Shown here piece by piece: positions 456 to 64,000 of a stretch of DNA of 64,000 bases. The notes beneath the pieces are model-generated. The model worked only from the letters and a program-made list of their open reading frames with translations. It was not told the DNA's origin and made no database searches. The position numbers and the translations under genes are program-made. Origin of the DNA: a virus; the IMG/VR virus record IMGVR_UViG_3300029796_000300; one strand, given 5' to 3'. The first letter of the stretch is position 1, and each line of letters starts with the position of its first letter.

Positions 456-1001
456 TCAGTTCCAGCAGAGATTCCTGATTTCGCGGTCAGACAGACCAAT
501 CGTTCCATCCAGCATCTCCGTCAAGAACTCATACTGCTCGTCGCCAGTCATGCGGTCGGCATACTCCAAAACATTGTGGATAATGCGACCCGCCGTGCCG
601 TCGATGTCGAAGTTGTTCAGAAGCCACTCGTAAGTGCCTTCGAGGCCGCAGGCTTCAGTCTCCTCGTCATCTGTGTTGGCGTCGCCATTTTCAAGAGCGT
701 CAGCAAGGTCGTTGAGCATCTCTTGGATGGCGTCAGCGTCTTCCACCAACGTCTTGATGTCTGGCACACCACTCACGCTGCCCTGCGCATCGACCAACAT
801 CTTGACGTGTTCCTCGGTATCGAAGCTGTCCGCGTAAGAACGGACTTCGGCTGCAAGACTCTCGGCGTCAGATGCGTCTTTCGTCAGAACCGTGAAGGAG
901 AAATCTTCCCCCGCCGGACTGCACTGGTTAAATTCGATGCTATCGCTGTCCATATCGACTGCCCATCCGTAGCTTTCTGCAATTTGAATCATTTTTTCCA
1001 T
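456..1001 (-). CDS. highly acidic hypothetical protein (Asp/Glu-rich; possible DNA-mimic / anti-restriction-like, inference only)
   Basis: 181-aa ORF; many D/E runs; preceded by conserved leader copy 1 and AAAGGAG RBS. Confidence 0.6.
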   Translation of the reverse strand: MEKMIQIAESYGWAVDMDSDSIEFNQCSPAGEDFSFTVLTKDASDAESLAAEVRSYADSFDTEEHVKMLVDAQGSVSGVPDIKTLVEDADAIQEMLNDLADALENGDANTDDEETEACGLEGTYEWLLNNFDIDGTAGRIIHNVLEYADRMTGDEQYEFLTEMLDGTIGLSDREIRNLCWN

Positions 1002-1034
1002 TTTTTAATTCTCCTTTTTTGAAATTTTTTTGAT

Positions 1035-1171
1035 ATATAAAAGCCAGCATCCGTATGGACGCTGACTGAATTTTCTTTGTGTTTGTGATACTTCTTTTGT
1101 ATGGTCTCAGCATACCGGCAGGCACGGAAAACTCCGCATTTTGCAAATTGGAACCTAAGAACCGAGGAACC
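1035..1171 (-). promoter_or_regulatory. conserved intergenic leader element (type B) copy 1: GAACC x3 at 8-bp period, conserved core, covarying hairpin + T-tract
   Basis: Shared sequence with 5 other copies (5037, 8218, 10258, 54764, 59167); hairpin GCCAGCATCC-GTAT-GGACGCTGAC. Confidence 0.6.
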
Positions 1172-1194: not shown

Positions 1195-1229
1195 AAAAAG
1201 AAAAAGCGCCGCCCACAAAGGGGCGGCGC
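1195..1229 (-). terminator. rho-independent terminator (GC hairpin GCGCCGCCCC..GGGCGGCGC + T-tract on minus strand)
   Basis: Inverted GC-rich repeat followed by T-run in gene sense. Confidence 0.6.
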
Positions 1230-1235
1230 TCAGGT

Positions 1236-4249: not shown

Positions 4250-4998
4250 TTATGAGATTTGAGAATCGGCGTTCTTCACATAGTCTTTCACTTTCTTCTG
4301 AAGCTGGTTGACCTTGCAAATCACGTTCTCCTCGTCGTCGATATCCTCGTAACTGCTGTCACAGCCGTCTACCACATTACCGTTTGCGGCAATGTAGAGC
4401 GTATCGAAGGCAATGCTGTTGTACTCTGTGGAGTAATCCGTTACCAGCTCGTCCATGTCGGTCCTGAGCACCTCCGGTGCTCTTACGCCGATGCCGTTCT
4501 TGTTGGCACGTCCGGTATTTAACAGCCAATTCAAATCGTCATCCTTGACCGAATGCTGTTTACCCTGGCCGAAGAAGGACAAGCCGCTCAGAATTTTCGC
4601 GTTGTCATTGTCGCGGAACGCCTCGTGGAACATATCCACAGAGACATCGACCTCGCACATATCCTGCTCTTCCATCTTAGCATACGATTCCAGCAGCGTC
4701 AGCGCGAGGTCGCGCATCTGCTCCTTCGACGTCGCTCCGTTGGTGGCGACATAGAAAGCAGCCGGCATCGTGTCATAACGCTCCGCAAGCTCAAAGTACC
4801 GCTTGATGGCCGGAACATTCAAAGACGGCTCGCCGCCCGTGAAAATGACGGAAGCAGGGTGGATATGCTTAGCGATGCCCGACAGAACTGCTGTTGAGAT
4901 GTCAAGATTTTGCGCATCTCCGCGCAGGCAGTGGTTGCATTTCATGTTGCAGCGACGAGTGACCTCAATGGCGAGGTAATTTACATAAATCTCCATTT
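4250..4998 (-). CDS. radical SAM domain protein (CNMKCNHC = CxxxCxxC; TGGEP motif), small single-cluster type
   Basis: Cys triad 13 aa from N-terminus; ATG at 4996-4998 downstream of leader copy 2 with AAAGGAGAAATG RBS. Confidence 0.8.
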
Positions 4999-5036
4999 TC
5001 ATTTCTCCTTTTTTGTGATGGTTATGTGATATATAA

Positions 5037-5176
5037 AAGCCAGCACCCACGCGGGCGCTGACTGAACTTTCTCTTTTGTTTGTGATACTTCTTTGGTATG
5101 GTCTCAGCATACCGGCGGAAGTGGAAATTGCCGCATTCACCTTCCAAGAACCTGAGAACTGGAGAACCGGAGAACT
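5037..5176 (-). promoter_or_regulatory. conserved leader element (type B) copy 2; hairpin GCCAGCACCC-ACGC-GGGCGCTGAC (compensatory changes); GAACC/GAACT x4 at 8-bp period
   Basis: Alignment with other copies. Confidence 0.6.
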
Positions 5177-7484: not shown

Positions 7485-8183
7485 TCAGTCACGCCAGTAT
7501 GCGCCGTCTTTCGCTTCGCCCTTCGGGAAAACGGTATACTCTGTTCCGTGCAGCACGATGTACTCATGGTTCAGAACATTGACAGAATCTCCAACGTCAA
7601 TGGTCTGAATGTTGAATACCTGCTTTGTGTCCAGACAGACGTCTGCCTTTGTCGCCGCAATGCAATTTCCGCCGTCCCAAACGGAGACATAAGGGATGTT
7701 GCGAACGATGGAAGGCTCTTCCTCAGTGCTCTGCTCAGCTTTCTCCAGAGCTGCCCGTACCTCGCCAATCTGCCAAGAAGGCATCAACGGGAATCCGGCT
7801 CTCGTATAGAGACCGCCGCCCGCCTCCGCCTTCTCCAAGGCGGCCTTTGCGGCGTCCTCGGATGCGAAGATGGTGTACTGGCTGACCTCGATACCGGGCA
7901 AGTAGGAAAACGTCTTCGTTTTACCATCAGAGCATTCGACTTCGGTCATTCCCGAATAGGCAACGCCCGTCCAGCCAAACCAACCGGGTTCCACAAATTC
8001 GGAGAAGGTCACAGTAGACACCGTTACTTTTACGACCGCCAACTCTCTCGTGGACGGACGATACAGCCGACCGTATTTGTTGACTTTCTGCTTAAAGGTG
8101 ATTGCGTACACCTCGGAGCCAATGCCGATGGGAACGCCGTCAGCAGTCTTGCACGCTGGTAAGAGATATGCCTTGTTCTTCAT
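7485..8183 (-). CDS. hypothetical protein
   Basis: 232-aa ORF, first gene after leader copy 3. Confidence 0.6.
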   Translation of the reverse strand: MKNKAYLLPACKTADGVPIGIGSEVYAITFKQKVNKYGRLYRPSTRELAVVKVTVSTVTFSEFVEPGWFGWTGVAYSGMTEVECSDGKTKTFSYLPGIEVSQYTIFASEDAAKAALEKAEAGGGLYTRAGFPLMPSWQIGEVRAALEKAEQSTEEEPSIVRNIPYVSVWDGGNCIAATKADVCLDTKQVFNIQTIDVGDSVNVLNHEYIVLHGTEYTVFPKGEAKDGAYWRD

Positions 8184-8217: not shown

Positions 8218-8359
8218 TATATATAAAAGCCAGCATCCGCAACGGACGCTGACTGAACTTTCTTTGTGTTTGAGATACTTCTTTTGTATGATTTCAGCAT
8301 ACCGGCAGAAGAGAAAAAATCACCTATTTCCTGATGGAGAACCTAAGAATATGAGAACT
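8218..8359 (-). promoter_or_regulatory. conserved leader element (type B) copy 3; hairpin GCCAGCATCC-GCAAC-GGACGCTGAC
   Basis: Alignment with other copies; GAACC/GAATA/GAACT at 8-bp period. Confidence 0.6.
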
Positions 8360-9861: not shown

Positions 9862-10227
9862 TCAAGCTGCCATCTGGTACAGCCATGCTTCAAAGTCTTC
9901 ATAGTCCATCAGCCGTCCATCCACCTCGACGAATCCAGGCTGCGTTGTGCCGCGAACAACGGAAAAGGAATCTCCGCCGCCACAGAAAACGCGAATGTTC
10001 GTTCTGGAGATGCTCTCGCAGCGCAAGAAATACGAGCCGAGGCGTTCCCAAATTCGGGACATCTCCTCGTCGGTCGCTTCCCAACTGCGGTTTTGGCTGG
10101 TACGGACCTTTGTTGCGGATACGGACAACTCAACCTGCTCCGTATCTTCCGGCAGCCCAAGCTCCGCGCAGACCTCTTTCCACTTTGTTTCGTCGCTGAA
10201 ATCCCACTTAAACAGCATTGCTTCCAT
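9862..10227 (-). CDS. hypothetical protein (MEAMLFKWDF...)
   Basis: Internal Met with AAAAAGGAGAAATAAAC RBS; first gene after leader copy 4. Confidence 0.55.
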   Translation of the reverse strand: MEAMLFKWDFSDETKWKEVCAELGLPEDTEQVELSVSATKVRTSQNRSWEATDEEMSRIWERLGSYFLRCESISRTNIRVFCGGGDSFSVVRGTTQPGFVEVDGRLMDYEDFEAWLYQMAA

Positions 10228-10257: not shown

Positions 10258-10398
10258 TATATAAAAAGCCAGCGGCATGATAAAACCGCTGACTGAACTT
10301 TCTTTGTGTATGTGATACTTCCTTTGTATGCTCTGAGCATACCGGCAAATATGGAAACACGCCTATTTTAATGTTGGGAACCTGAGAACCGAAGAATA
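10258..10398 (-). promoter_or_regulatory. conserved leader element (type B) copy 4; hairpin stem CAGCGG / CCGCTG with 10-nt loop
   Basis: Alignment; GAACC GAACC GAATA at 8-bp period. Confidence 0.6.
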
Positions 10399-10465
10399 CA
10401 TATCGTCACGCGCAATGTCCGCTTCACGCTGGCGGAACTGCTCGATTGGATTTAAGAAACGGAGA

Positions 10466-10500
10466 ATAGCAAAAAACGCCGCCCATCTGGGCGGCGTTTC
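10466..10500 (-). terminator. intrinsic terminator after sigma factor gene (GCCGCCCAGATGGGCGGC + TTTTTT)
   Basis: Perfect GC hairpin followed by T6. Confidence 0.7.
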
Positions 10501-11622
10501 TCATTCAAGAAAGTCCTGAAGCATCTTCCCTGCCTTTCCGTTGCGTAGCTTATCGAGTGTTTTATCTGTAACCTGACGGACACGCTCTCGCGTTAAGTCC
10601 ATTTCGTCCCCGATTTCTTTGAGGGTATAAGCACAACCATCCTCCAATCCGAATCGTAAGCGAAGCACACAGGCGTCTCGTGCGGGCATATCGTGCAGGA
10701 TTTTGTCCATCGTTTCCCATAGTGCCTTCCCTGACGTTGAAATTTCCGGGTTATCCCACTCGTTATGGCTTGGGATGAATTCCGAAAGCGGTGTGTTGGA
10801 ATCGCTTGCGGCGTCCGAATTGACGGGCGCATCCAACGAGTCCGGCTTCCGGTACTGGAGCGAGTGTTGGATGATGCGCAGTTTTTTCTGCTGCTCCCTT
10901 TTTGAAAGGGAATCCCACGCATCCCCCTCCATGTATTTTGCGATTTCTAAAGGGTCATCACAAGGTAAGCCTTTTTGTTGCATTTGTTCTTTTGCATTAT
11001 TGACGCTCCGCCTGCCCTCCGCAACATAGATGGGCTTGCGAATGGCTGGGTCCGTCGTGGCAAGCGCTCTTGTGATGTTTTGCCTTATCCAGAAGGTTGC
11101 GTAGGTGGAAAACTTCACATTCCTCGAAATGTCAAAAGAGTCGATGGAACGCATGAGGCCAATGTTGCCCTCCTGAATGAGGTCCATGAACACCATAGAA
11201 TCGGCTGAGTTTATATATTTCTTTGCGATGGACACAACAAGCCGAAGATTGCCCTCAACAACCTTATCTTTCGCCCGTCTTCCTGCTTCTATGGCCTTCA
11301 TCAGGTCTTTCTTGATTTCGGGGTCAACTGCATTCCCGCTCTCCTCGGCAATTACCCGCAGCGTTTCGAGCTGTTCGGCAGCGGCATTCCCCTTCTGCAC
11401 TTTTTCAATGCAGCGATTCGCTTCCACCTGCGGCATAATGGGAATGCTGCCAATTTGGCTGAGATACATCGCCACATGGTCGCCGATATTTCCCGGCTGC
11501 TTCGCTTCGGTCTCCTGTTCATTCGAAGCTGTGATTTCTTCTGTTTCAGGCTGCCTTTCAATGGCTTCATAGGCAAGCGCACGGTCAGCGGCTAAATTAC
11601 TGGTATTCGTGATGTCAACCAC
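10501..11622 (-). CDS. RNA polymerase sigma-70 family sigma factor (regions 1.2-4; housekeeping-like paralog carried on element); start codon uncertain (GTG at 11622 or ATG at 11472)
   Basis: Region 2 motif LIQEGNIGLMRSIDSFD...FSTYATFWIRQ; region 4 HTH LKEIGDEMDLTRERVRQV. Confidence 0.8.
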   Translation of the reverse strand: MVDITNTSNLAADRALAYEAIERQPETEEITASNEQETEAKQPGNIGDHVAMYLSQIGSIPIMPQVEANRCIEKVQKGNAAAEQLETLRVIAEESGNAVDPEIKKDLMKAIEAGRRAKDKVVEGNLRLVVSIAKKYINSADSMVFMDLIQEGNIGLMRSIDSFDISRNVKFSTYATFWIRQNITRALATTDPAIRKPIYVAEGRRSVNNAKEQMQQKGLPCDDPLEIAKYMEGDAWDSLSKREQQKKLRIIQHSLQYRKPDSLDAPVNSDAASDSNTPLSEFIPSHNEWDNPEISTSGKALWETMDKILHDMPARDACVLRLRFGLEDGCAYTLKEIGDEMDLTRERVRQVTDKTLDKLRNGKAGKMLQDFLE

Positions 11623-12229: not shown

Positions 12230-12757
12230 TTACACCTCCGAAATTTCGATTCCGTACTTTTCCAACATGAGTTTGCGTTTCATAAGATACTTTTCGGTTC
12301 GTTTTCCCTTCGCGTCTTCCACGATGCGTTTACCGTTGCGAAGGTATACGAAATCTGCCTTATAGACCATTGGGCGAACCCGCTTGCCATTTGGCCGTGT
12401 ATAGCCCTCGACCAGCGTGAAGTCCTGCTGGAGCCGCAGGTCCTGGATTGCACCGCCCTTGTACTGCAAATACAGTTCATCGAAGCGCCGTGCCTCCCGC
12501 TTGCTGGGGAATTTCACGGTTTCTCCATCCACCACGCGAATGACCTTTACATTGCGATATTTGGATGGCTCAGCAGCGTCCGCTTCTTTCGGCTGTTTTT
12601 GCCTTTTCTGTGCTTCCGGCTGTTTTTTTGCTTGCTGCTGTTTCTGTTCGCGCTTCTGCTCGTCGAGCTTTGCACGCACCTGAATCTGTGCGGAAAGCGG
12701 CAGGCTATTGATGTCAATACCCACCTTCAGTTCCTCCGCCTGTTTGTGGCGCGGCAT
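12230..12757 (-). CDS. DUF1064-like phage protein (KYRNVKV...YKADFVY...IVEDAKG motifs), basic/Q-rich N-terminus
   Basis: Motif resemblance to DUF1064 family. Confidence 0.6.
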   Translation of the reverse strand: MPRHKQAEELKVGIDINSLPLSAQIQVRAKLDEQKREQKQQQAKKQPEAQKRQKQPKEADAAEPSKYRNVKVIRVVDGETVKFPSKREARRFDELYLQYKGGAIQDLRLQQDFTLVEGYTRPNGKRVRPMVYKADFVYLRNGKRIVEDAKGKRTEKYLMKRKLMLEKYGIEISEV

Positions 12758-13116
12758 TTTGGCTGCTTCCTTCTCGCAGCAGAATCAAATTCATGACCTT
12801 CCATACCGTCCAGATACACAGATGGCGAACTATGCTTCTGCTGGTGCCGTGCAGGTCGGCGATTTGCGAAAACGTCATTCTGTCACGAAAATACTTTTGG
12901 ACGATATCGCGGTTTCGCTCAGGAAGTGTGTCCAGCGCTTCATCGAACATCTCGTTAAAGCCCGGTGTAAATGAAATTTGATTCTTACCCCAGGCTGAAA
13001 TTTGATTCTTACACCAGGCAAAGGATGTATCGTACATAATGGCCGCCTTCCGCCACTCCTCCGGGGCAAACTCAGGCTGGTTAATCTTGTCTGTCGTTTG
13101 TTTCTTTGTCATTTTT
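12714..13116 (-). CDS. small sigma region-4-like HTH DNA-binding protein; contains in-frame tandem repeat (AWCKNQIS AWGKNQIS)
   Basis: RNRDIVQKYFRDRMTFSQIADLHGTSRSIV resembles sigma-70 region 4. Confidence 0.5.
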
Positions 13117-13357
13117 GTTTTTCCTTTCTCCGTCGCTGCAAAAACTATTTGGAAATGTCCGATGCTGCGGCATGAGAGATGTACCACCGCAAACCCAACC
13201 GTCTGATTGCGAAAATACACAGCCCTCACATCGCACCACCGGCACGGCATCCACAGTGGGGGCTTTTTCGAGCAAGCCAAGTAAGCCGTTCCAACCAGCA
13301 CAATACGCCGCAGGGAGAACATCTTTGCTGCACCGCCCCACGCCCAATTTATCAATA

Positions 13358-15722: not shown

Positions 15723-17117
15723 TTATTTTTTTGCCTCGGCTGCTGCATGGGGAAGCCGCACCCAGCCGCCCTTATGACGAACAAGCTGGATTTTCTTCAT
15801 GCTGACCATAAGCGGCTTTCCATCCGTGAGTAGGCTTAATGCCCTGCCATAGCTGGAGCAGCCCTTGGAAACGTATTTGCGATTGCCGTAGACCACGATA
15901 TCTCCCGGCTGCATGGCATATCTCTGCTTTCTGGTCGAGGTTCGGCCCTTTGACTTCTTACAGCCACGGAACCGGCGCAGATTTTCGCCGTCAAGGTTAT
16001 GATTGCGGTTCGTCCTGCCGGAGGACAGCTCGTTGCCAGAACGGATAACTCCCTTTTCCCGTGTGTCGTAATATTTGGCGTCATAGAATTTGGATAGGAC
16101 TCTGTTGTTTCGCCTGTATTTCTGGAAGACCTCTGTTTCGCATCTGGCTTCCGGACGCAGCTCGCCCATGCAGTAGGCATCCGTAGCGCAGGAATACGGG
16201 AGGCCGAGGTTGGTGCGGACGCGCTTGGAGATGACGCCATAGGTCATGTGTACTTCCGCAACACCCTGGAAGCGAGCCATCGCACGCTGATAGAGAATCC
16301 AGCGCACGCTATTCATAAACGCTTCGCCGGTATATTTCCGCAGAGGCTTATCGAAGCCCCACAGCTTCCCGCCCTCCTTGTGATTGGCAGGTGTGTTGCA
16401 CTTCTCGCAGCAGGTCGCAAGCTCCCTCATGCTGTTCCCATGCAGACCTTTCCAGTAGTAGGCGTGATGGACATGAAGGATAGCGCCGTCTTTCAGGCCT
16501 CTCTTGCAATACACACAGGTATAGTGGTCCCGTTCAAAGACCGCTTCCCGCAGCGTATCGTAGCCGTACTGCGGTCCATGCTGATAGTCCTTGCCCTGCG
16601 GGACAGGTTCCCCTGCCTCCAGCGCCGCAAGGAGCTGTGTATCGTATGTCGCGGCCTTGATAAAGACATCCGTGACAGGCATGACAGACAGATAACGGGA
16701 GATAATATCCAGGTGCCGCTCCACCTTGTTGTCCAGAGACGGAGCAATCCAACCGGGCTTTTTGCCTGATACACGGTTATTGAACCGTGCAGCCCGATAC
16801 CGCAGGCGGTTTCTGCGCGTCCGGCGGTACGCTCGGCAGTCGTCATGGCGAGAGCGCTCGTTCGTGAGCATATCATATTGCTGCGATACGACCTCTTTTG
16901 CCTTTGTCTTAATGCTGACGCCGATATGCTCATATCCGGTGCCGACGCACATTTCGATGGGCTGGGTATAGGTACTGGTATCGTAGGTCAGCTGGATGGT
17001 GAACGGGTTCCGCTTCGCAATCACAGCGCGGCCATCCTTCAACAGATGGCGCACTTTGCCGTAATTTTCGGTCGGCATCAGCCGTTCACCGTTTGCACTT
17101 AAAACACATACTGGCAT
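15723..17117 (-). CDS. IscB-family protein (PLMP, bridge helix, HNH zinc finger present) with RuvC catalytic residues substituted (RuvC-I D->T, RuvC-II E->K, RuvC-III H->C) relative to the canonical copy at 29896..31188
   Basis: Pairwise alignment by eye: ILGVDAGSKTIG vs EMCVGTGYEHIG; VVVETAEFD vs VFIKAATYD; HTNDALAIA vs SCATDAYCM; HNH HVHH kept, N->E. Confidence 0.8.
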   Translation of the reverse strand: MPVCVLSANGERLMPTENYGKVRHLLKDGRAVIAKRNPFTIQLTYDTSTYTQPIEMCVGTGYEHIGVSIKTKAKEVVSQQYDMLTNERSRHDDCRAYRRTRRNRLRYRAARFNNRVSGKKPGWIAPSLDNKVERHLDIISRYLSVMPVTDVFIKAATYDTQLLAALEAGEPVPQGKDYQHGPQYGYDTLREAVFERDHYTCVYCKRGLKDGAILHVHHAYYWKGLHGNSMRELATCCEKCNTPANHKEGGKLWGFDKPLRKYTGEAFMNSVRWILYQRAMARFQGVAEVHMTYGVISKRVRTNLGLPYSCATDAYCMGELRPEARCETEVFQKYRRNNRVLSKFYDAKYYDTREKGVIRSGNELSSGRTNRNHNLDGENLRRFRGCKKSKGRTSTRKQRYAMQPGDIVVYGNRKYVSKGCSSYGRALSLLTDGKPLMVSMKKIQLVRHKGGWVRLPHAAAEAKK

Positions 17118-17640
17118 CTTATTTTTTCCTTTCACGCTGCGGGTGCAGTTTCCTGTCATTCGATGGGGGACGTCAACTGCGTGATGCTCCGTTTGCGGGG
17201 GGCTGCGGTATAGCTACCTGTCATTTGGTGGGGGACGTCAACCTGTCAATCCGGATTGCAATTTAATCGTACGGTATAGCTCCCTGTCATTTGGTGGGGG
17301 ACGTCAACTGAAGTTGAGTTTGCCGAGTATATTCCAAACGACAAACCAAAAAGGTAAATCAGCACTTACCGCTCACGCGGCGTTACTGTGGTCCACATCG
17401 CCAAGGATATACCGGGTTTGATGGTACGCACACTTCTCCTTCCCCTCAGAGATGTTTAATACGCACCCGCAGAGCGGCGGACTTGTGGAGTATCCGCCGG
17501 TGCCTATGTATTCCGGCATATCGTAGTCTTGCGGCTGAGGCTTATTGACGAGGCTTACTCTCCTTGCGGGTCATAAGCCACACCAAATGACAGGAGGCTG
17601 AGCCGGAGTTTCCGGCGCACCCGCCCGCCATTCGGCGGGG
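17118..17640 (-). ncRNA. putative IscB omega-RNA region upstream of iscB-like gene (shares conserved core with region 31189-31470)
   Basis: Structured, non-coding, homologous motif ...ctcagag.tgtttaa...ccgcagag...ccgccggtgcctat... shared with second IscB locus. Confidence 0.45.
17139..17313. repeat. three direct copies of 26-bp unit CCTGTCATTTGGTGGGGGACGTCAAC at ~70-bp period; unit is complementary to CACCAAATGACAGG at 17586-17599
   Basis: Direct reading of sequence. Confidence 0.75.
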
Positions 17641-18699: not shown

Positions 18700-19010
18700 A
18701 GAAAACCAAAGATTTGGTAAATCAGCACTTACCGCTCACGCGGCGTTACTGTGGTCCACATCGCCAAGGATATACCGGGTTTGATGGTACGCACACTTCT
18801 CCTTCCCCTCAGAGATGTTTAATACGCACCCGCAGAGCAGCGGACTTGTGGAGCATCCACCGGTGCCTATGGATTCCGGCATATCGTAGCCTTGCGGCTG
18901 AGGCTTATTGACGAGGCTTACTCCCCTTGCGGGTCATAAGCCACACCAAATGACAGGAGGCTGGGTCGGAGTTTCCGGCGCACCCGCCCGCCATTCGGCG
19001 GGAGTGCAGA
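18700..19010 (-). ncRNA. orphan near-identical duplicate (~300 bp, a few SNPs) of the omega-RNA-like segment 17341-17640, not adjacent to any iscB
   Basis: Near-identity over ~300 bp incl. CACCAAATGACAGGAGGCTG at 18946. Confidence 0.45.
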
Positions 19011-24599: not shown

Positions 24600-24795
24600 T
24601 ATGATGATTTCTCCGTCTGAGCACTCAATGACGGAATAGGCTCCCTCACTCGAAATATTGACACTCCCCACGGCTAAAGCCGGGGGATTCCTGGTTCAAC
24701 GACCGCAGCCTGCACGAGCGAGGTCTTACATGGTCTCCCCAGGCGTATCGGTTCGGGCGTGTCCCGCCCTACCATGAGCAAAAAGTCTATCAGGC
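24600..24795 (-). ncRNA. putative TnpB omega-RNA (reRNA) at 3' end of tnpB / right end of IS
   Basis: Structured GC-rich hairpins immediately 3' of tnpB (CCCACGGCTAAAGCCGGGGG etc.). Confidence 0.4.
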
Positions 24796-25911
24796 TGCGG
24801 ACGACCGCTTGCGAAGCCCCTCTTCCAGGATGTTCTGCGCCGCGTTGATGTCGCGGTCATGGAACGCGCCGCACTGCGGACAGGTCCAAAACCGGATACC
24901 GAGGTCTTTGACCTCTTTGTTTTGATATCCGCAACAGCCGCAAGTCTGGCTGGATGGGAAGAACCTGCCGATGATGACGAGTTCCTTGCCATACCAGTCA
25001 GCCTTGTAGGCAAGCTGCCTGCGGATTTCGCCCCATGCGGCGTCCGCAACATGGAGCGCGAGCTTGTGGTTCTTCATCATGTTTTTGGAGGACAAGTCCT
25101 CTATGCAGATGATGTCATTGCTCCGCACAAGCTGCGTCGTCATCTTATGGATGGCGTCATTCCGTTGGTTAGCAATATGCTCATGTAACCGCGCAATTTT
25201 AACGCGAGCTTTCTCACGGTTGCAGCTCCCCTTTGATTTTCGGGAGAGCTGCCGTTGGAGGCGGGCCAGCTTCTTGAGATTGCGGCGGTAGCTATGGAGG
25301 TTGTCGTACTTCACGCCATCCGATGTGATAGCCAAGTCCTTGATGCCGAGGTCTATGCCGACAGCGGCTCCGGTCTTTGGCAGCGACTTGATGTCCACGT
25401 CGGTACAGCAAAGGGAAACATAGTATTTGCCGCTGGCTTCCTGTGACACAGTAGCAGAGAGCACTCGGCCCTCCACCTTGCGGCTGACGCGGCACTTGAC
25501 ATTGCCGAGCTTCGGGAGCTGCATCGCACCGTCCAGCACCTTGATATTGGTGCCGACGCATTTGCTTTTATAGCTGCGGCGGTGCTGGCGCTTGCTCTTG
25601 AAGCATGGAAATCCCGGCTTCTCACCGTGCTTCACACGGCGGAAGAAGTTCTGGTAGGCGGTATCCAAGTCACGCAGGGACGATTGCAGCGCAGTAGAAT
25701 CCACCTCGCCGAGCCACGGACGTTGTTTCTTCAAGGCGGTCATATCGGCGGAGCAGGCCTTATAGCCAAGTGTCGTCTTGTCTGTCTTGTAAGCGTCAAT
25801 ACGCTTGGCGAGATAGTAGTTATAGACGAAGCGGCAGCATCCAAAGGTTCGTTGTATCTGAATCGTTTGCTCTTTCGTAGGGTAGATACGAAATCTGTAA
25901 CTATGCTCCAT
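24790..25911 (-). CDS. tnpB: TnpB (IS200/IS605 family OrfB; RuvC-like nuclease, intact catalytic motifs)
   Basis: [10 protein letters not shown]; [10 protein letters not shown] (D); ICIEDL (E); CGCCG...[18 protein letters not shown]. Confidence 0.85.
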
Positions 25912-25957
25912 GAAATCACCGCCTTTCATACTTGATTATACCATATTTTCGTGGTTT

Positions 25958-27064: not shown

Positions 27065-27604
27065 TCACGCGAAGTACCACTCCCCATTGCTGAATTCAAC
27101 GAACTCTTCCTCGGCGGCGAAATGCACCTCCAAAAAAAGCTCTCCTTCGCCATTATCTACGACCACCACATCGTAGTCGTCGTCTCCATAGTAGGAGATG
27201 ATATCGTGATGCTTATTCGCTTTCTCGTCGATGATGCACATATCGCGCGGCACCTTGTAGAGCAACGCTCCATCCTTCCGCCGCGTACAGCACGCGGCAT
27301 CGTAGAAAAGGAAAGTCTCTCTGTTGTCTTCGTCGGCGTTTTTGAATTCCCTAATACCGTTCTTTTCTTTCTCCGCAAGTTCGTTAAGCAAAGCTACGAC
27401 CTTCAGCGTTTTTACATTCAACATAGAGTTCCTCCTCAGTAATTCGTACAGCATCCCATAGAGATACTCCGGCGGGCTGCATTTCTCCTGCTCCCAGTTT
27501 CGGACTGTTCCCAGAGGAATTCCGGTGGTAAGGGCAAATTCACGCTGGGACAGCTTAAAATCCTGACGCTGCTTTCGGATGCGGTTCTGCTCGTGTTCAA
27601 TCAT
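27065..27604 (-). CDS. XRE-family HTH transcriptional regulator with C-terminal domain of unknown function
   Basis: LSQREFALTTGIPLGTVRNWEQEK HTH; AAGGGTGG RBS before second Met. Confidence 0.6.
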   Translation of the reverse strand: MIEHEQNRIRKQRQDFKLSQREFALTTGIPLGTVRNWEQEKCSPPEYLYGMLYELLRRNSMLNVKTLKVVALLNELAEKEKNGIREFKNADEDNRETFLFYDAACCTRRKDGALLYKVPRDMCIIDEKANKHHDIISYYGDDDYDVVVVDNGEGELFLEVHFAAEEEFVEFSNGEWYFA

Positions 27605-29895: not shown

Positions 29896-31188
29896 CTATG
29901 CAACCAAATAACTTTGGCTGCGTTCCAATAGTTTTAAGTGTTTGTAGCTCACGCCGTCTTTGACCTTTTCTCCGTTGAGCTGCCGCAGCAGGAAGGAGCC
30001 GCTGGTGCGTCTCCCCCAGACAAAGCACTCGATACCGTTGTAGAGCACCTTGTCGTAGAGGCGGAAGCCGCAGATGTACTTCTCTGCCTGATTGGCCTTC
30101 CGCACACCGCCCTTCAGGATGGTCGCCTTGTGCAGCTGACGGTTGTGATGTCTCACAGGGCAGATGGTGTAAAGTTGGTCCGCCTGACGGATATTTGGCA
30201 GGTATTCTGCGCGAAAGCCCTGCGGGCCGTGCGCGATTGCCAGCGCGTCGTTGGTATGGCTCTTCGGCAGCACCAGCAGATTCTCCCGCGTAGCCTTGGT
30301 GATGTAGCCCCTGGTCTCCACAACGGGGACAGGAAGCTGCTCCCGCAGCCTCCGCAGCAGCGTCATGCGCATGATGCCCATGAAGGTTGCGTCGCGGGTG
30401 GAGCGGCGCTTGCGCTTCTTGATGTCCGCTGCCATGATAATGCCCTTGTGGAGCTTATCGTGACAGGCGGTACAGAGCGTTACCAGATTGTCCGGAGCGT
30501 CACCGCCTACCCTGCGGCTCTCAAGATGATGCACATGGAGCGGGACGCCCTTCCTGACGGAGCCATGCACCCCGCAGATGCGGCAGGTATAGCTGTCGCG
30601 CCACAGGACGTACTGGCGCACGTTGTAGTGGCCGTACATCTCGCCCTTCTGGTAGTCCTCGCCCTGCGGAACAGGCTTCCCTTCCGCAACGGCCTTGAGG
30701 AGCTGCAAGTCGAACTCGGCGGTCTCTACAACCACCTTGCTGACAGGCAGGATGGCGCAGGCACGCCGGATGGCGGTCATGTGCTCCTGAATCTTGACCT
30801 CCACGGAGGGCGCAAGCCAGCCTTTGTGCTTGCTCCGCACGCGATTGTCGAAGCGTGGCTTGCGATACCGGGTGGTACGATTGCGCCGCGCACGGCGGAA
30901 TTGCCTGCGTGCGGACATCAGCTCGACTACATCGTTGCGCGGCTTGACCTCTGCGGAGAACAGTTCCTCCGTTTCGGTGGCAGCTGAAAGACCAATGGTT
31001 TTGCTGCCGGCGTCCACACCGAGGATGACCTCCTGCGTATAGCCGGTACTGCCGTAGAGCAGCTGAATGGTAAATGGTGTTCTGTGTCTCACTTTTGCCT
31101 TGCCCGCATCCAGAAGATGACGGGCCTTCGCCGGTGTGCAGGGCATCAGCGGACGCCCGTGCCGATTGAGAACATAGACCTTTGGCAT
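29896..31188 (-). CDS. iscB: IscB (OMEGA RNA-guided nuclease; PLMP, RuvC-I/II/III, bridge helix, HNH all intact)
   Basis: RPLMPCTP; ILGVDAGSKTIG; RRARRNRTTRYRKPRFDNR; VVVETAEFD; CRICG...HVHH...DNLVTLCTACHDKLH; HTNDALAIA. Confidence 0.85.
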   Translation of the reverse strand: MPKVYVLNRHGRPLMPCTPAKARHLLDAGKAKVRHRTPFTIQLLYGSTGYTQEVILGVDAGSKTIGLSAATETEELFSAEVKPRNDVVELMSARRQFRRARRNRTTRYRKPRFDNRVRSKHKGWLAPSVEVKIQEHMTAIRRACAILPVSKVVVETAEFDLQLLKAVAEGKPVPQGEDYQKGEMYGHYNVRQYVLWRDSYTCRICGVHGSVRKGVPLHVHHLESRRVGGDAPDNLVTLCTACHDKLHKGIIMAADIKKRKRRSTRDATFMGIMRMTLLRRLREQLPVPVVETRGYITKATRENLLVLPKSHTNDALAIAHGPQGFRAEYLPNIRQADQLYTICPVRHHNRQLHKATILKGGVRKANQAEKYICGFRLYDKVLYNGIECFVWGRRTSGSFLLRQLNGEKVKDGVSYKHLKLLERSQSYLVA

Positions 31189-31470
31189 ACGTTGATGCCT
31201 CCTTTCTTTGGGTGCGGCTAAAAATTAAGCCGCTCAGCCTTTCGGCTGTCAGGTATCCGTACCCAATGTTATCCCAGGGTTTTGTGTATGCAGCACTGCT
31301 CCTTACCCTCAGAGCTGTTTAACCACACACCGCAGAGTGGCAGATTCGGATTCACGTCCGCCGGTGCCTATCTATTCCTGGGTAACGTAGTGTTCGAAAC
31401 ACTTAGGGTAGTCAATCAGGCTCGTGGTTCGCACCACAAGCCCCCGGCTTTAGCCGTGGGGTTACATTGA
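31189..31470 (-). ncRNA. putative IscB omega-RNA immediately upstream of iscB
   Basis: Non-coding structured region homologous to 17400-17560 core; terminal hairpin CCCCCGGCTTTAGCCGTGGGG. Confidence 0.5.
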
Positions 31471-33200
31471 CTTTGAGGGACCCCTCTCACTTTGGCCTTT
31501 TCGATTTTTCCAATCACTTCTGTTACCTTCTGTGCAGTCAGAGGGCTGGCGGTGGATTTATCCAGTGCGTCCAGCAGTTCCGGCAGCTCGCCGAGTTTTA
31601 CGACCGGGATTTCGCTGTTGTCCGCATCCTGCAATTTTACATTTGGGTTGGCAAGGCAGATGATGCCGCATACCGGAACATCCTCACCAACGATTTTCGA
31701 CAGTAAGGCAGCGTGACGCTTAACTTGGAAAGCTGGGCTTTCCGTTGTGGTGAAATGCCCTGCATTTCGCATATCCCGGTCCCAATAGTTCGTGTCATCG
31801 ACGCGGATGGTTCCAACGTAGTTTTTTGTCTCAATATGAATGACGCCGGCAGGTCCTACGAGGAGGTGGTCGATTTCCTGTGGCTCTTTCATATAGTCCC
31901 ACGCGGCGATACGGATACATCCTCCGCTGTACTTGCTCACGCAGTCTGCCGCGATGCTGCGGTATGCGCTGTGCTCTGCAAGCCACCACTTGAGTTTGTA
32001 ATTCACTTCCCTCTCACCGGCTTCGCCCAGTTCTCGTGCTTTGCGCTCCCGCTCCTCCTGCTCTTGCTCCACACGAGCGGCTTCCGCCGCCGCGCTGGCG
32101 ATTTGATTGCGGTAGTTCGAGCACACGCTTTCCGCGAGACCAGTCACGCCTTCCAGTATCAGATTAAGCTGACTATTGAGTTGAAAATGTTTGGCCGCTA
32201 TTTCGCTGCGCAAGTGCAAGATGTTTTTCGATTTTTCGAGAAGCACACACTCACCGAGCGTAAGGTCGGAGTAAGCGTCGCAGAAGGCATCTGGGATATT
32301 GAGCCTGCACTTCTCCATTATCCAGCTTTTTACTTCCGCTCTCTTCTGTGCTCTGACACAGCAATACTCCGGATGCGTCCGCTCCAACGTGTCGATGTAC
32401 TGTCGCGCATGGGCGATGATGCCGCTTCGCTCCGCAGCAATCGCTGCTTCCTCGGCCTGCTTCGCCTCCGCTTCCCGGCATCTGGCCTCTTCCTGCCTGC
32501 GTTGCCGCTCCTCACGGATATGCTGCGCGGTCTTCCCGCTTACGCCAGGTTTGAACTCGTACATCTTTCCGGTCGCAAACAGGGCTTTCAGCAGGACGGA
32601 GACATAATAGGCGCTGTACGGAATCAGCAGGACAATGCCAAGGTAGCAGAACACATAGGATACGACGCCGAGAGCCTTCCACAACGAGACGACCAGGACG
32701 AAGGCCGCAACGTAGGCGGCCAGATAGATAAGGCATTTTGTCCTCTGATTTTTGTCGCGAGTCATGGTCAAGAATTTGCTCTGCTCCACATAATCCGCAT
32801 ACTGTTCATCCGATACGACTTTCTGCCACTCGTCCGCCATGCTGCGGTTTGCAAAGAAGAAGGTTCGGAGCATTAACAACAAACCGATAACCGCCAGCAA
32901 AATGAAGGCCACAATGCAGACACAAAGGAGTGCGAGCACAGCGCTAATCACCTTGAGGATACCGTGACCGAGCAGTTCGGCGAGCCATCCGCACAGCTGG
33001 GTCGCCAGAATTCCGCCCATGCCGATGCAGAAGGTCTTAGTGAGCAGTGCAGCTTCCTTTTTCAGTGTTGCCTTGACTGTACTGTAGTATGTTTCCGCAG
33101 ACCTTATCCCCTCGTTGTTCTCCACAATTTCCCGTGCGGCATCCATGTACTTATGAAGCCGGTCAACAAACCAATCTTTGATGGAATCCAACATAAGCAA
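31416..33200 (-). CDS. membrane-anchored NERD (nuclease-related) domain protein
   Basis: N-terminal TM helices; C-terminal ...NYKLKWWL...DHLLVGPAGVIHIETKNYVG NERD pattern; 3' end overlaps omega-RNA region. Confidence 0.65.
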   Translation of the reverse strand: MLMLDSIKDWFVDRLHKYMDAAREIVENNEGIRSAETYYSTVKATLKKEAALLTKTFCIGMGGILATQLCGWLAELLGHGILKVISAVLALLCVCIVAFILLAVIGLLLMLRTFFFANRSMADEWQKVVSDEQYADYVEQSKFLTMTRDKNQRTKCLIYLAAYVAAFVLVVSLWKALGVVSYVFCYLGIVLLIPYSAYYVSVLLKALFATGKMYEFKPGVSGKTAQHIREERQRRQEEARCREAEAKQAEEAAIAAERSGIIAHARQYIDTLERTHPEYCCVRAQKRAEVKSWIMEKCRLNIPDAFCDAYSDLTLGECVLLEKSKNILHLRSEIAAKHFQLNSQLNLILEGVTGLAESVCSNYRNQIASAAAEAARVEQEQEERERKARELGEAGEREVNYKLKWWLAEHSAYRSIAADCVSKYSGGCIRIAAWDYMKEPQEIDHLLVGPAGVIHIETKNYVGTIRVDDTNYWDRDMRNAGHFTTTESPAFQVKRHAALLSKIVGEDVPVCGIICLANPNVKLQDADNSEIPVVKLGELPELLDALDKSTASPLTAQKVTEVIGKIEKAKVRGVPQSQCNPTAKAGGLWCEPRA

Positions 33201-50608: not shown

Positions 50609-50794
50609 AAAAAACAGGGCAAGGATACCCCCGCCCTACAAAGCCGGCGGAAGAACTGCCCGTCCTCCTTTCCGAAAATAGAAAATAAAAGAGGGCTTGC
50701 GGAATCCGGTGTGGGCCGGACTCCTGACAAGCTCTCTGTATATTGACACCCACAAAACAAGAGCGATGGATGACTGGCTCAGAAGCCTGAGCCA

Positions 50795-53779: not shown

Positions 53780-54727
53780 TTAAACTCCTTCCTTCTGCCG
53801 TGCCAGATACTCCTGACGTTCGGCCTCCTTTTTGTTCTCTCCTTCGATGATGACGGGGATGCACATGGCATTCTCCCACGTTTCGATGAAGCGTGTTACG
53901 CGATACATCATGCGGTACATATCGCGGTCAGAAACCTGGATAAATACCTCCACCTTGTTTCGCATGGATTTTCCGTCGAATGTCGTGGCCCCGGTCGCCT
54001 GCTCAATCACCTTGGCATCGCCGTTGGTGATTTTCAGGACCCAAGGATACATTGCAAGGTCTCCGTCCTGACGAACGCTGTCATGCGTGACTGTCAGCAT
54101 AGACACCGGCGCAAATCCGTCCGTGCCTTTCTTGTAGGTATTGACCTTGGACATGGCATACTGGTAGTCCATTCGGTGCGGAAATTTGAGCGCAGTCCCA
54201 ATGTCCGCATCCGCGATAGCAGTGCGGGCTTCTTTCAGAACTGTGCCGGCTGCCATGAGGATATCCTTCTTTTCTGCTCCCTTAACGGCCTTGGCCACAA
54301 TGCTTACGCTCTTGCTCAGAAGACTGCCATAAGCCTTCGCAACGCTGGCAGTGCGATGAATCGACTTCATCAGACCATTGACAGCATTGGGGGCCAAAAC
54401 AGTCTCCCATGGCTTCTGCGCATCCTTCGCGACACGTCCAATCAGCGGAACAGCCATCGTACCGACATTGCAGCGGCAAACGGTGAGCCATTCGTCGAAC
54501 ATGGTCGGGTCAATATTCACGGAACAGGTGACACTTTTATCGCCCGTTCCCTTCGTGAAATCACAGATGACCATTTCGATGACAGAGGGAAAGGTCTTTC
54601 CTCCATTTTTCTTGCCGCCAGACTGGTGCATCATCGCATACTCGTCAGGCAGCGACCGGCTCAGCTTGTCGCGAAAGTCAACGACTTTATCCTTGCCGTT
54701 ACACTTGGTAATCACATTTGTTACCAT
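53780..54727 (-). CDS. hypothetical protein cotranscribed with ERF
   Basis: 315-aa ORF after leader copy 5. Confidence 0.6.
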   Translation of the reverse strand: MVTNVITKCNGKDKVVDFRDKLSRSLPDEYAMMHQSGGKKNGGKTFPSVIEMVICDFTKGTGDKSVTCSVNIDPTMFDEWLTVCRCNVGTMAVPLIGRVAKDAQKPWETVLAPNAVNGLMKSIHRTASVAKAYGSLLSKSVSIVAKAVKGAEKKDILMAAGTVLKEARTAIADADIGTALKFPHRMDYQYAMSKVNTYKKGTDGFAPVSMLTVTHDSVRQDGDLAMYPWVLKITNGDAKVIEQATGATTFDGKSMRNKVEVFIQVSDRDMYRMMYRVTRFIETWENAMCIPVIIEGENKKEAERQEYLARQKEGV

Positions 54728-54763: not shown

Positions 54764-54917
54764 TATATAAAAGCCTGCGCCCGTTGGGTGCAGACTGAAC
54801 TTTCATTATGTTTGTGATACTTCCTTTGTATGGTCTCAGCATACCGACTTTTTTCTCGCTTACAGAATTGCGCTGTGCAGGAATATAGGTTCTTAGGAAT
54901 AGAAGTACCCAAGAACC
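54764..54917 (-). promoter_or_regulatory. conserved leader element (type B) copy 5; hairpin CTGCGCCC-GTT-GGGTGCAG
   Basis: Alignment with other copies. Confidence 0.6.
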
Positions 54918-54922: not shown

Positions 54923-54960
54923 AGGGCAAAAAGAAATCCGGGCCAGAAGGCCCGGATTAT
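54923..54960 (-). terminator. intrinsic terminator after zincin-vWA gene (ATCCGGGCC..GGCCCGGAT + T-tract)
   Basis: Perfect 9-bp GC stem + TTCTTTTT. Confidence 0.65.
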
Positions 54961-58943: not shown

Positions 58944-59129
58944 TTAACGGGCGTTTGCAGCAGACAGATTCCGCCACACGCGAAACAGATGCGCGAGATA
59001 ACTCTCCGCTTCCTGTCTCTCCATGAAACCGGAACCCGTCAGGTACTTCATTGCACTTTCCTTGCTGCCACGGGATTCGCCGTCGATGACATAACCCATT
59101 GCTTTCGTAAAGTAGTCGTTTGTAAACAT
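58944..59129 (-). CDS. small hypothetical protein (MFTNDYFTKAMGYVIDG...) first gene after leader copy 6
   Basis: AAAGGAGAA RBS 11 nt upstream. Confidence 0.45.
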   Translation of the reverse strand: MFTNDYFTKAMGYVIDGESRGSKESAMKYLTGSGFMERQEAESYLAHLFRVWRNLSAANAR

Positions 59130-59166: not shown

Positions 59167-59310
59167 TATATAAAAAGCCAGTATCCGTAAAGGATGCTGA
59201 CTGAACTTTCTTTATGTTTGCGATACTTCTTTTGTATGGTCACAGCATACCGGCCTTTTTGCCATTTGCAGAATTGTGATAAACAGGAATACAGGTTCCT
59301 GAGTTCCGAG
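59167..59310 (-). promoter_or_regulatory. conserved leader element (type B) copy 6; hairpin GCCAGTATCC-GTAAA-GGATGCTGAC
   Basis: Alignment with other copies. Confidence 0.6.
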
Positions 59311-59379
59311 GTGCCTGAGTGTTTCGGCAAAAAACAGCAGCACCCATCCGGTATGGATAGATGCCGCTGGAAGATGTAC

Positions 59380-62415: not shown

Positions 62416-62444
62416 ATTATACCACTCAAATGTTTAATAGTCAA
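62416..62444 (-). promoter_or_regulatory. type A promoter TTGACT-N17-TATAAT
   Basis: rc: TTGACTATTAAACATTTGAGTGGTATAAT. Confidence 0.55.
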
Positions 62445-62581: not shown

Positions 62582-63457
62582 TTGAACGAAGAAGAGAAGT
62601 TGAAAAACAAAGAGGTCTGCGATAAACTGACTGAGCTTTTTTCGAGAGACGTCCGGTCTATGACCAGACTCGGCGAGGCTTTTTTCAAGAAAGGGCGTAA
62701 ACACAGCGGCCTTGGGAAATACTCCGACCTGTATGGCAAAAGCTATCCCCTTGCCGCAGATACCGAGACGAATTTCCGCTGTTCGCTGGACCGATTCTCA
62801 GAGGATGACAGCAATCGAATTTTTAACTTCCTTGCTGTCAGATACGGATTCAACTCTGACAGCCTGCGTCGAAAGCGCATTGTGTGGGCCAAAGGTGAGA
62901 TTGAAGGATTGCTTCAAATTACCGGTCTGTCTTATCAGGAGTTCTTCCGGGATGTTCTGGGTATCTCCATTCCAATGCCGTCCTCCCAGGAGCATCAGTT
63001 GATAGACCGGATGGACAACATAGGCGATGCGTCCCTTGCAAAGCTGAAAGCTATCGTGGAAGACCTCGACCCGCATCTGGAGCGTGCGGAGGATGGCAGC
63101 GTTTACTCCATCCCCTCCGCCAGAATCAAATCTCTCGTGCGGTATAGGAAGGCTGCAACGGAAACCAACCGAGAGTTCATTCGGAAGCTGCACGGCGACA
63201 CGGAGGGCACGATGCAGACCCTCTCTGTCCGCAGAACCGCCTTTAATATTCAGCAAGTCGTTGAGGCTGCGGAACTTATGGATGCGCCCCTGTTTTGGGT
63301 GCTGTGCTGTGAGAACTTCCCGCTGTATGCGAAGCGCATCGAAACCGACTATGTGTTTGCACTTTACAAATTTCTTTCTCTGAATAACCGTAAGCTGTTT
63401 CAGACAGCAGTGGAGTGTATTTCCGCCGCTGAAAGTGAGGTGACATCCAATGTCTGA
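62582..63457 (+). CDS. hypothetical protein (TTG start after AAAGGAGGGAG RBS)
   Basis: ORF 62564..63457; RBS spacing favours TTG at 62582. Confidence 0.5.
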   Translation: MNEEEKLKNKEVCDKLTELFSRDVRSMTRLGEAFFKKGRKHSGLGKYSDLYGKSYPLAADTETNFRCSLDRFSEDDSNRIFNFLAVRYGFNSDSLRRKRIVWAKGEIEGLLQITGLSYQEFFRDVLGISIPMPSSQEHQLIDRMDNIGDASLAKLKAIVEDLDPHLERAEDGSVYSIPSARIKSLVRYRKAATETNREFIRKLHGDTEGTMQTLSVRRTAFNIQQVVEAAELMDAPLFWVLCCENFPLYAKRIETDYVFALYKFLSLNNRKLFQTAVECISAAESEVTSNV

Positions 63458-64000
63458 AGAAAAGGCCCTTTCGTCAGAAAAAAAAACCGCAGAGCGCCCC
63501 GCTCCCTTCGCTGCCATGAAAAATGAGGTCGAATTCACAAGCGGAATGGAGTCTGCCTCCGAACAGGAGCAGAAAAAAGTCAAATCTATTCTATTGGAAA
63601 TTGAATCCGAGCTAAACGCCTACGACCGGGCAACCGGCTTAAAAAAAATAGCCTTCAGCAGAAACTTTCATATCCGTCCCGACCTTCTCGAAAAAATCCG
63701 CAGCATCAGCGATATCCGCATCCAGCGGGGCATCATCAATTATTACATTGATTCTGCGGTTCATATCAAGACCTCATATATCGCCAATATGATGGACGTC
63801 AAGAAGCGCGAGAACGGTCTGACGGCGAAGGAAATCGCGAGGACGTGCAGCATCACAGCATCCCTGCTGTCACGGGGCATTAAAGACGGAGCGATTCTGC
63901 TGCCGCCCGCTTCGATTGCCGCCTTCTGCGATATCGTAACCGGGCAGTCTGTGGCGGAAACCTTTTTCGGGATGCCGCCGAAAATCATGCTCCCCCTCAA
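63450..64000 (+). CDS. HTH (XRE-like) regulator, 3' end beyond window
   Basis: Open frame from ATG 63450 to window end; LTAKEIARTCSITASLLSRGIKDG HTH-like. Confidence 0.5.
   Translation, partial: MSEEKALSSEKKTAERPAPFAAMKNEVEFTSGMESASEQEQKKVKSILLEIESELNAYDRATGLKKIAFSRNFHIRPDLLEKIRSISDIRIQRGIINYYIDSAVHIKTSYIANMMDVKKRENGLTAKEIARTCSITASLLSRGIKDGAILLPPASIAAFCDIVTGQSVAETFFGMPPKIMLPL

Follow-up and report, generated by a model that had tools for sequence, protein, structure and literature searches.

The DNA stretch studied here, hereafter the window, comprises 64,000 nucleotides of IMG/VR record IMGVR_UViG_3300029796_000300 and is part of a large conjugative element of human-gut Oscillospiraceae. 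All genes in the window lie on the minus strand, and six operons are preceded by copies of one conserved non-coding leader (c1 to c6). A leader profile search of the window recovered exactly these six copies. At the upstream edge of each leader lies an array of boxes with an 8-bp period, in which the unit reads a-G-G-T-T-C-Y-Y on the minus (coding) strand. These arrays and their possible role in controlling the operons behind the leaders are the subject of this work.

Array c1 (1150..1171, minus) consists of three contiguous 8-bp boxes, GGTTCC TC GGTTCT TA GGTTCC. Array c2 (5147..5176, minus) has four boxes (AGTTCT CC GGTTCT CC AGTTCT CA GGTTCT), while c3 (8338..8359, minus; AGTTCT CA TATTCT TA GGTTCT) and c4 (10377..10398, minus; TATTCT TC GGTTCT CA GGTTCC) have three each. 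The remaining two, termed class B, contain units in both orientations. In array c5 (54880..54917, minus) five boxes stand in frame, namely GGTTCT (54912-54917), GGTACT (54904-54909), TATTCC (54896-54901), inverted AGAACC (54888-54893) and TATTCC (54880-54885). Array c6 (59286..59315, minus) has four in-frame boxes: GGCACC (59310-59315), GGAACT (59302-59307) and GGAACC (59294-59299), both inverted, and TATTCC (59286-59291).

An earlier examination of the letters of this stretch, here called the sequence-only reading, had described the arrays on the plus strand as pentamers GAACC, GAACT or GAATA in exact 8-bp phase. One of these pentamers was found at all 13 coordinates it had listed. Runs of at least three pentamers in the 64-kb window had an exact 8-bp period and started at 1151, 5148 (four units), 8339 and 10378; there were none at periods of 5-7 or 9-11 bp and a single unrelated run at period 12. 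No run appeared in 200 dinucleotide-preserving shuffles of the window. When two-box dyads were counted in either orientation, 13 of 14 mapped to the six leaders, the remaining one lying inside a gene at 46372. The placement of the arrays at the upstream edge of the leaders was also right, because the genes are on the minus strand and the arrays thus lie truly 5' of the leaders. The same applies to the partly inverted units described for copies 5 and 6, in which the 8-bp frame is kept as well.

In the coding direction, the parts of a cassette follow in the order terminator of the preceding operon, 5-30 nt, array, 35-nt spacer, core, hairpin, approximately 20 nt, the Shine-Dalgarno (SD) sequence AAGGAGA and start codon. 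The intrinsic terminator of the operon upstream of c1 (1204..1231, minus) ends about 30 nt before the array. Equivalent terminators precede the other arrays, e.g. at 54935-54958 (c5) and 59335-59369 (c6); those of c1, c5 and c6 were confirmed by a scan, and those of the other copies are a hairpin plus T-run read from the sequence. The c1 spacer contains the element (G/A)AAT(G/A) (1137..1141, minus), whose AAT occupies the same position in all six leaders of the window and in 33 of 34 leader types from related contigs (see below), the L001 type having AAA. It also contains a TTTYC element (1126-1131) in 8-bp phase with the array. The spacers of class B differ (CAATTCTG).

The core of c1 (1064..1119, minus; GCCGGTATGCTGAGACCATACAAAAGAAGTATCACAAACACAAAGAAAATTCAGTC) has counterparts at 5060-5116, 8251-8306, 10291-10346, 54793-54848 and 59199-59254. 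It is 55 nt long, almost invariant (GCCGGTATGCTGAGACCATACAAAAGAAGTATCACAAACAnAAAGAAAGTTCAGTC), and contains the -10-like hexamer TATGCT, which in c1 (1109..1114, minus) lies 35 bp downstream of the proximal box and is found in the other copies at 5106-5111, 8296-8301, 10336-10341, 54838-54843 and 59244-59249. Among relatives the hexamer also occurs as TATACT and TATTCT. It is a candidate -10 element or a candidate σ-dependent pause element. The core is followed by a terminator-like hairpin of 11-12 bp and a U-tract (UUUUAUAUA), located at 1034..1067 (minus) in c1 and at 5030-5063, 8220-8254, 10258-10294, 54764-54796 and 59167-59202 in the others; the stem covaries. The first gene behind c1 has its SD sequence at 1010-1016 and its start codon at 999-1001 (together 999..1016, minus), and the start codons of the other operons are at 4994-4996, 8181-8183, 10225-10227, 54725-54727 and 59127-59129. 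Screening with Rfam 15 covariance models gave nothing at the leaders at the gathering threshold, and sub-threshold matches fell only over the upstream terminator.

Conservation of the array was then followed in a larger set of leaders. Scans of related contigs were anchored on the core alone and were hence independent of the array. They yielded 123 unique leader sequences, which were grouped into 34 distinct upstream types after removal of four chance matches. The sequence-only reading had suggested that the periodicity be compared with shuffled sequence in a larger homologous set. In the 87 nt upstream, TTCY-TTCY distances of 8 bp occurred 55 times and those of 16, 24, 32 and 40 bp 35, 26, 21 and 16 times, as opposed to two occurrences of 7 bp and none of 9 bp; in shuffled sequence the mean was 0.8 and the highest value 5. 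No type has fewer than two in-frame boxes: of the 34, 12 have two, 16 have three, five have four and one has five. The distance from the end of the proximal box to TAT(G/A/T)CT is 35 bp in 23 types, 36 bp in nine and 34 bp in two, and the proximal box is the best conserved of the array. Within the boxes TTC never varies, and 86 of 89 units have a pyrimidine at position 7. Near-identical orthologous copies show no substitution in the box cores, while inter-box and flanking positions do vary. A pattern composed of two boxes, spacer, TATNCT and CATRC matched 49 times in IMG/VR, each time within this element lineage.

Two classes of promoters can be distinguished in the window. On the coding strand there are ten near-perfect σA promoters of the form TTGACw-17(TG)-TATAAT, all of them intergenic, with -35 elements starting at 62444, 42377, 41723, 33254, 29333, 27685, 27031, 21312, 15691 and 11672 (minus). 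They drive the σ factor gene, the gene for an Xre protein, a helicase gene and blocks of type IV secretion system (T4SS) genes. None of the ten is accompanied by boxes, and no leader has a consensus promoter; the leaders therefore form a separate promoter class. In the leaders no σA-type -35/-10 pair adjoins the array. The best -10 candidate is TATNCT, with T, A, T and the final T invariant and G, A or T at position 4, and it lacks a -35 element.

Other promoter types were considered for the leader and rejected. A σA promoter inside it has no proper -35/-10 pair, TTTTATATAT after the hairpin being without a usable hexamer, and a plus-strand TTGTGT-17-TATGGT is weak as a σA promoter. For SigD (GCCGATAT-like GCCGGTAT) any TAAA-like element is 3 nt too far away, and for SigE/K (CATACA) there is no -35 partner. 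The start of the core matches the RfaH ops element at 8 of 10 positions; no NusG paralogue was found, the CGG part varies, and this candidate was dropped. A single-stranded DNA promoter of the Frpo type would have a long conserved hairpin, whereas the only conserved pairings are the 11-bp terminator stem and a stem of 5-7 bp.

We propose, with about an even chance of being right, that protein binds cooperatively to the array as duplex DNA and that the array forms the module by which the leader promoters are controlled from upstream. The regulator, probably a product of the element itself, would oligomerise and occupy the boxes side by side, with one protomer or dimer per box as in MetJ, omega, Reg576 or Q21. 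From 35±1 bp upstream of TAT(G/A/T)CT, the bound protein would control initiation at a non-canonical, -35-less promoter. With this promoter recurring before at least 14-16 operons of each element, these would make up one regulon, and their transcripts would then reach a second checkpoint at the conserved terminator hairpin of the leader. We lean towards recruitment or activation rather than repression, because the core promoter, without a -35 element, looks intrinsically weak and the strong consensus promoters have no boxes. The boxes with their phase and frame, their exclusive association with the leader, the lack of RNA covariation and the two promoter classes are observed; that a protein binds, where transcription starts, whether control is positive or negative and which protein reads the boxes are what we infer here. 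The sequence-only reading had suspected in the array the regulator input of the leader system and had considered an array-binding protein; the arrangement of the cassette points in the same direction on the first count, and such a protein appears to be the best reading on the second. Its remark that 8 bp is atypical for classical helix-turn-helix (HTH) dimers was fair, contiguous 8-bp boxes having precedents in ribbon-helix-helix (RHH) repressors and in Q21.

Several points weigh against this proposal. All leaders stem from one lineage with 96-99% DNA identity where compared; their independence rests on the paralogous leaders, and gene conversion among these could keep up part of the similarity. 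The array could lie at -69 to -48 if TATNCT is the -10 element, or at about -40 to -19 if the AAT of the spacer ends it, in which case TATNCT would fall at about +18. The terminator present in every cassette is left unexplained by this model alone. Furthermore, no cognate binding protein was found among the window proteins and related loci scanned. No member of the RHH family was present among the small open reading frames (ORFs) scanned, although RHH proteins are easily missed and the window is less than half of the element. Two HTH proteins that the sequence-only reading had put forward as possible box readers are disfavoured as well. One, a 132-aa protein with only a σ4 domain (12714-13112, listed there as 12714-13116), exists in alleles with different recognition helices (TSRSIVRHLCI versus ISGSRVRQLRV) in elements whose arrays are identical. 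The other, a σ4/αCTD-like protein of 418 aa, is missing from relatives with the same arrays, where three small genes take its place.

Further searches for the reader were made. A crude RHH regular expression run over 1.37 Mb of related loci gave nothing credible, and no Q, AlpA or NusG-like protein was detected among the window proteins scanned. Homologues of the 418-aa and σ4 proteins, used to seek more diverged elements, led to contigs that are 96-99% identical except for a local patch. The Xre protein (27065-27604) and the product of 62798-63517, also among the HTH proteins proposed earlier, stay candidates. The Xre protein showed no similarity to SinR, and searches of PDB sequences with the Xre and σ4 proteins were uninformative. 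The σ factor of the element, likewise proposed, retains WIRQNITR and TRERVRQ, by which σ70 recognises -10 and -35. With these canonical recognition motifs it fits the separate class of consensus promoters. Its gene (10501-11622, minus) stands behind a 12/12 consensus promoter and lies in a conserved block with the σ4-only protein, DUF1064 and a 167-aa protein; the σ factor itself is RpoD/SigA-like, has canonical 2.4 and 4.2 motifs and lacks a long N-terminal region.

The array might instead act in RNA, the GGUUC repeats of read-through transcripts being bound by a TRAP/HutP-like protein or serving as anti-SD sequence (UUCUCC/GGAGAA). The operons are all co-oriented, so that read-through is possible, and the repeats lie upstream of a terminator-like hairpin. 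In single-sequence minimum-free-energy folds of two leaders, array pyrimidines pair with the SD region (z = -2.7 and -1.8). This pairing is not conserved in the 34 leaders, for which RNAalifold returned the terminator hairpin with compensatory changes and an invariant short core stem and found no covariation in array or spacer. An antiterminator pairing AUGCUGA/UCAGCGU was rejected, as it is not conserved in c5 and was not recovered by RNAalifold. The RNA repeat-binding protein envisaged in the sequence-only reading is further opposed by the inverted units of c5 and c6: AGAACC, GGAACT and GGAACC fill exactly the hexamer frames of GGTTCY, and in RNA they give GGAAC, which differs from GGUUC. 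With some units inverted, about 95 nt between array and hairpin, and no alternative structure, the resemblance to TRAP or HutP sites is poor, and UUCUCC is present in some units only. A GC-rich hairpin with T-run stands just upstream in about 29 of the 34 types (our own reading of the printed upstream sequences, not a computed count), so that most arrays would be transcribed only by read-through of a strong terminator. The fixed DNA distance to TATNCT is also left unexplained. An RNA-level role is thus judged very improbable. Recognition on duplex DNA is favoured because inverted units stay in frame, while an RNA reader would meet a different sequence, because no conserved RNA pairing includes the array, because most arrays start just past a terminator with no room for an upstream promoter, and because the proximal box is at a fixed distance from the -10-like hexamer. 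A similarly small probability is assigned to a functionless 8-bp minisatellite, made by slippage, carried along with the duplicated leader and homogenised by gene conversion. It would fit with the leaders being all of one lineage, with the existence of recombinant leaders (L031, see below) and with the common occurrence of 8-bp GGTTCY runs, many of them perfect, in unrelated viral contigs. However, the units are not identical, TTC being invariant and the other positions varying in a position-specific manner; the proximal box is the best conserved and stands at a fixed distance from TATNCT; inverted units remain in frame; and the box cores are free of substitutions among orthologues while neighbouring positions change.

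Two further explanations were weighed. In a Q21/AlpA-like loading site, an antiterminator loaded on DNA at 8-bp subsites would engage RNA polymerase paused at TATNCT, and the modified polymerase would pass the terminator of the leader. Array, pause element and terminator would then be parts of one cassette, present in about 20 copies. According to the Q21 preprint (bioRxiv 10.1101/651190), the σR4-like HTH of Q21 recognises two 8-bp subsites arranged as a direct repeat, and a Q cassette is built from a promoter, a -10-like pause element and a terminator. All three parts are found in fixed order in each cassette of the element, with the covarying hairpin and U-tract about 50 nt after the invariant TATNCT; direct 8-bp subsites are matched in form only, and a terminator does stand between hexamer and genes. 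The absence of a conserved alternative antiterminator structure in the RNA favours factor-dependent read-through, and the element encodes the σ4-only protein of 132 aa. From holoenzyme geometry, with the Q site where the -35 element sits, the distance from Q site to pause element is estimated at about 23 bp. Between the proximal box and TATNCT there are 35 bp (41 bp between their centres), roughly twice this value. Moreover, there is no good promoter between array and TATNCT, an nnnAAT with the key A at position 2 occurring in about half of the types; Q, AlpA and NusG-like proteins were missing among the window proteins scanned; and the σ4-only protein is a weak candidate, its alleles differing in the recognition helix where the arrays are identical. 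We regard such a loading site, which would account for all three conserved parts of the cassette, as the main alternative but unlikely, and slightly less likely still the fuller version in which a Q21/AlpA-style cassette before some 20 operons would have an antiterminator make RNA polymerase terminator-resistant at each. If true, it would amount to regulon-wide, DNA-targeted antitermination in a Firmicute conjugative element. Alternatively, the boxes could be repeated -35-like hexamers for an alternative σ, either host SigH (AGGAWWT ... RGAAT) or a factor of the element, with the conserved (G/A)AAT or TTTYC serving as -10. SigH promoters of C. difficile have the form AGAGGAnnnT-N12-RGAAT, with one listed example showing AGGT (PMC7438776), and the leaders approach this form: the boxes begin with AGG, RGAAT stands at a fixed place in the spacer, the second box is 23 nt from GAAT as compared to 21-22 nt in the C. 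difficile examples, and core conservation begins sharply about 7 nt after TTTYC. Yet SigH needs A at position 4 of the box, where 89 of 89 direct units have T, the spacing exceeds that of SigH promoters by 1-2 nt, the class B spacers depart from this scheme, and one -35 element would be enough where two to five in-frame boxes, inverted ones included, are kept. This explanation is considered improbable.

The proposed side-by-side binding to duplex DNA has parallels among RHH proteins. The met-boxes of MetJ, the heptads of omega (inc18 plasmids) and the 8-bp repeats of ParG are contiguous boxes of 7-8 bp bound as arrays by RHH proteins. Such arrays comprise two to about ten tandem units and tolerate degenerate copies, and one regulator serves several promoters; omega heptads stand in direct or inverted orientation within one frame. 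The arrays described here likewise consist of contiguous 8-bp boxes, at least two in tandem and with degenerate copies, and share with omega the mixture of direct and inverted units in one register (c5, c6). They differ in box sequence, which is unrelated, and in that the scan of small ORFs brought up no RHH protein.

Among characterised systems, Reg576 of Bacillus plasmid p576 comes closest. There, dual heptamers TTATCCCnnTTATCCC (EGeRS2) lie directly upstream of the -35 element of four establishment promoters (PMC6294495, PMC8708921); they have a 9-bp period, are bound by an RHH tetramer and also occur in opposite orientation (PMC6294495). Common to both systems are short, sub-helical direct repeats 5' of several co-oriented operons on a Gram-positive conjugative element, copies in opposite orientation, and a regulon of variable, mostly uncharacterised 'establishment' genes. 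Binding of Reg576 is cooperative with one dimer per repeat, as is proposed for the boxes here. The arrays differ from EGeRS2 by their 8-bp period, by two to five contiguous boxes of another sequence, and by about 15-20 cassettes per element instead of four. Moreover, Reg576 promoters are strong consensus σA promoters, whereas in our element the box promoters lack a -35 and the consensus promoters lack boxes; the small ORFs scanned yielded no RHH gene, and each cassette comes with a 55-nt core and a terminator.

With Q21 (bioRxiv 10.1101/651190) the cassettes share the order DNA site, -10-like element, terminator and genes. They differ from it in the distance from site to -10-like element, which is about twice as long, in the two to five boxes, in having many cassettes per genome and not one, in the Firmicute host and conjugative element, and in the lack of a Q-like protein among the window proteins scanned. 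EGeRS1 of pLS20-family plasmids is a GC-rich sequence of 420-750 bp, full of inverted repeats and without short periodic boxes (PMC8708921). The leaders resemble it as conserved non-coding sequences before multiple operons of a conjugative element, without a recognisable constitutive σA promoter and with upstream read-through blocked (PMC8708921); in contrast to EGeRS1 they have short periodic boxes, and there is no sequence similarity. Finally, the GTTCTY core of the boxes matches six of seven positions of the SinR box GTTCTYT, several copies and orientations of which occur at target promoters; SinR, however, favours inverted repeats, and its boxes keep no constant tandem phase of 8 bp (PMC3163267). 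Box sequence, 8-bp period, copy number, non-canonical promoter and obligatory leader terminator set the array apart from these known systems.

The type of control considered here is a known one and overturns no concept, comparable operator arrays being known from Bacillus and enterococcal plasmids. Large conjugative elements of gut Clostridia are barely characterised, and in this one a single reusable cassette of boxes, non-canonical promoter, leader and terminator organises at least 14-16 operons. These encode an orphan methylase, recombination and priming functions, a pilin, and many likely anti-defence proteins without assignment. The boxes offer a handle for capturing the master regulator and for defining its regulon by sequence alone. 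They would also help to distinguish between an activator cascade, zygotic derepression and Q-like antitermination of establishment or transfer genes.

Assignment of the window to a conjugative element is based on its T4SS-related genes, even though its relatives are filed in IMG/VR as viral contigs. These genes encode a VirD4-type coupling protein, a VirB4-like ATPase, a PrgI-like protein, a TrbC/VirB2-like pilin, a peptidoglycan hydrolase and a signal peptidase; other genes encode ERF, a primase, a helicase, uracil-DNA glycosylase (UDG), the σ factor, and IscB/TnpB insertions. A phage origin, as suggested by the IMG/VR labels and by PHROG matches, was rejected in view of VirD4, VirB4, the PrgI-like protein, the TrbC-like pilin and the signal peptidase. 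It is also countered by a cultured isolate, Oscillospiraceae bacterium CM18GR_63, in which a single contig of 570 kb carries at least 14 copies of the leader. The related contigs are 150-160 kb long, come from human gut metagenomes and have 14-16 leader copies each. Contig IMGVR_UViG_3300029584_000162 and others (L001-L071) are T4SS-bearing element contigs catalogued as viral, a likely misclassification. Megablast of 12 kb against PLSDB plasmids and INPHARED phages matched nothing.

The genes behind the leaders encode a radical-SAM protein, an orphan C5 DNA methylase, a YqaJ-type nuclease, ERF, a primase, a RecD2-like helicase, an HD protein, a vWA/AAA pair, a TrbC-like pilin and many small, often acidic proteins without family. 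This regulon resembles the variable 'establishment' regulons of pLS20-family plasmids (PMC8708921). Inside the long operon behind c5, directly 3' of the TrbC/VirB2-like pilin gene, there is a strong terminator-like hairpin (50614-50639, minus), an arrangement resembling pilin-gene attenuators of other T4SS operons.

With respect to the leaders, a few additional features were observed. A degenerate box pair TATTCT CC GTTTCT with 8-bp spacing (10455..10468, minus) was read from the sequence 57 nt upstream of array c4; its significance is uncertain. At the same place in every core (1089-1117 in c1), three related pentamers follow each other with a 12-bp period as GTATG-N7-CATAC-N7-GTATC. The first two form an inverted repeat, and -10-like hexamers are found on both strands (TATGCT on minus, TATGGT on plus). 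In leader L031 (875, minus), a c2-type terminator and array are joined to a c4-type spacer and core. Because of this junction we conclude that leaders recombine with one another, by which operons are probably shuffled.

Tandem 8-bp GGTTCY runs (GGTTCYNNGGTTCYNNGGTTCY) are common in IMG/VR contigs unrelated to the window (L227-L328; 27-75% GC), with many perfect, microsatellite-like ones among the matches listed. Families L229/L230/L250/L310, L240/L246/L261/L290 and L242, again among the matches listed, have three to five direct boxes and an inverted set 50-70 bp further on, an arrangement that looks like iterons or operators. ORFs near these runs were compared with the window proteins by blastp, and none was shared.

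The gene for the σ4-only protein is separated from that of the 418-aa protein by a 245-nt gap (13113-13357) that ends at the real start of the former; a mechanical ORF of 202/215 aa crosses the gap. The C-terminal 150 aa or so of the 418-aa protein are a very widespread domain, fused elsewhere to HTH, glycosyltransferase, ParB and PAPS reductase N-termini. Three copies of HEARO (IscB omega-RNA) above the Rfam gathering score are present on the minus strand (17386-17549, 18749-18968 and 31248-31471). Two lie directly upstream of ORFs for IscB-like HNH/RRXRR proteins (15723-17159 and 29896-31188), and the third precedes a 200-aa ORF without family. Together with a TnpB/IS200-605-type transposase gene (24790-25929), this set shows an active load of OMEGA elements inside the conjugative element.

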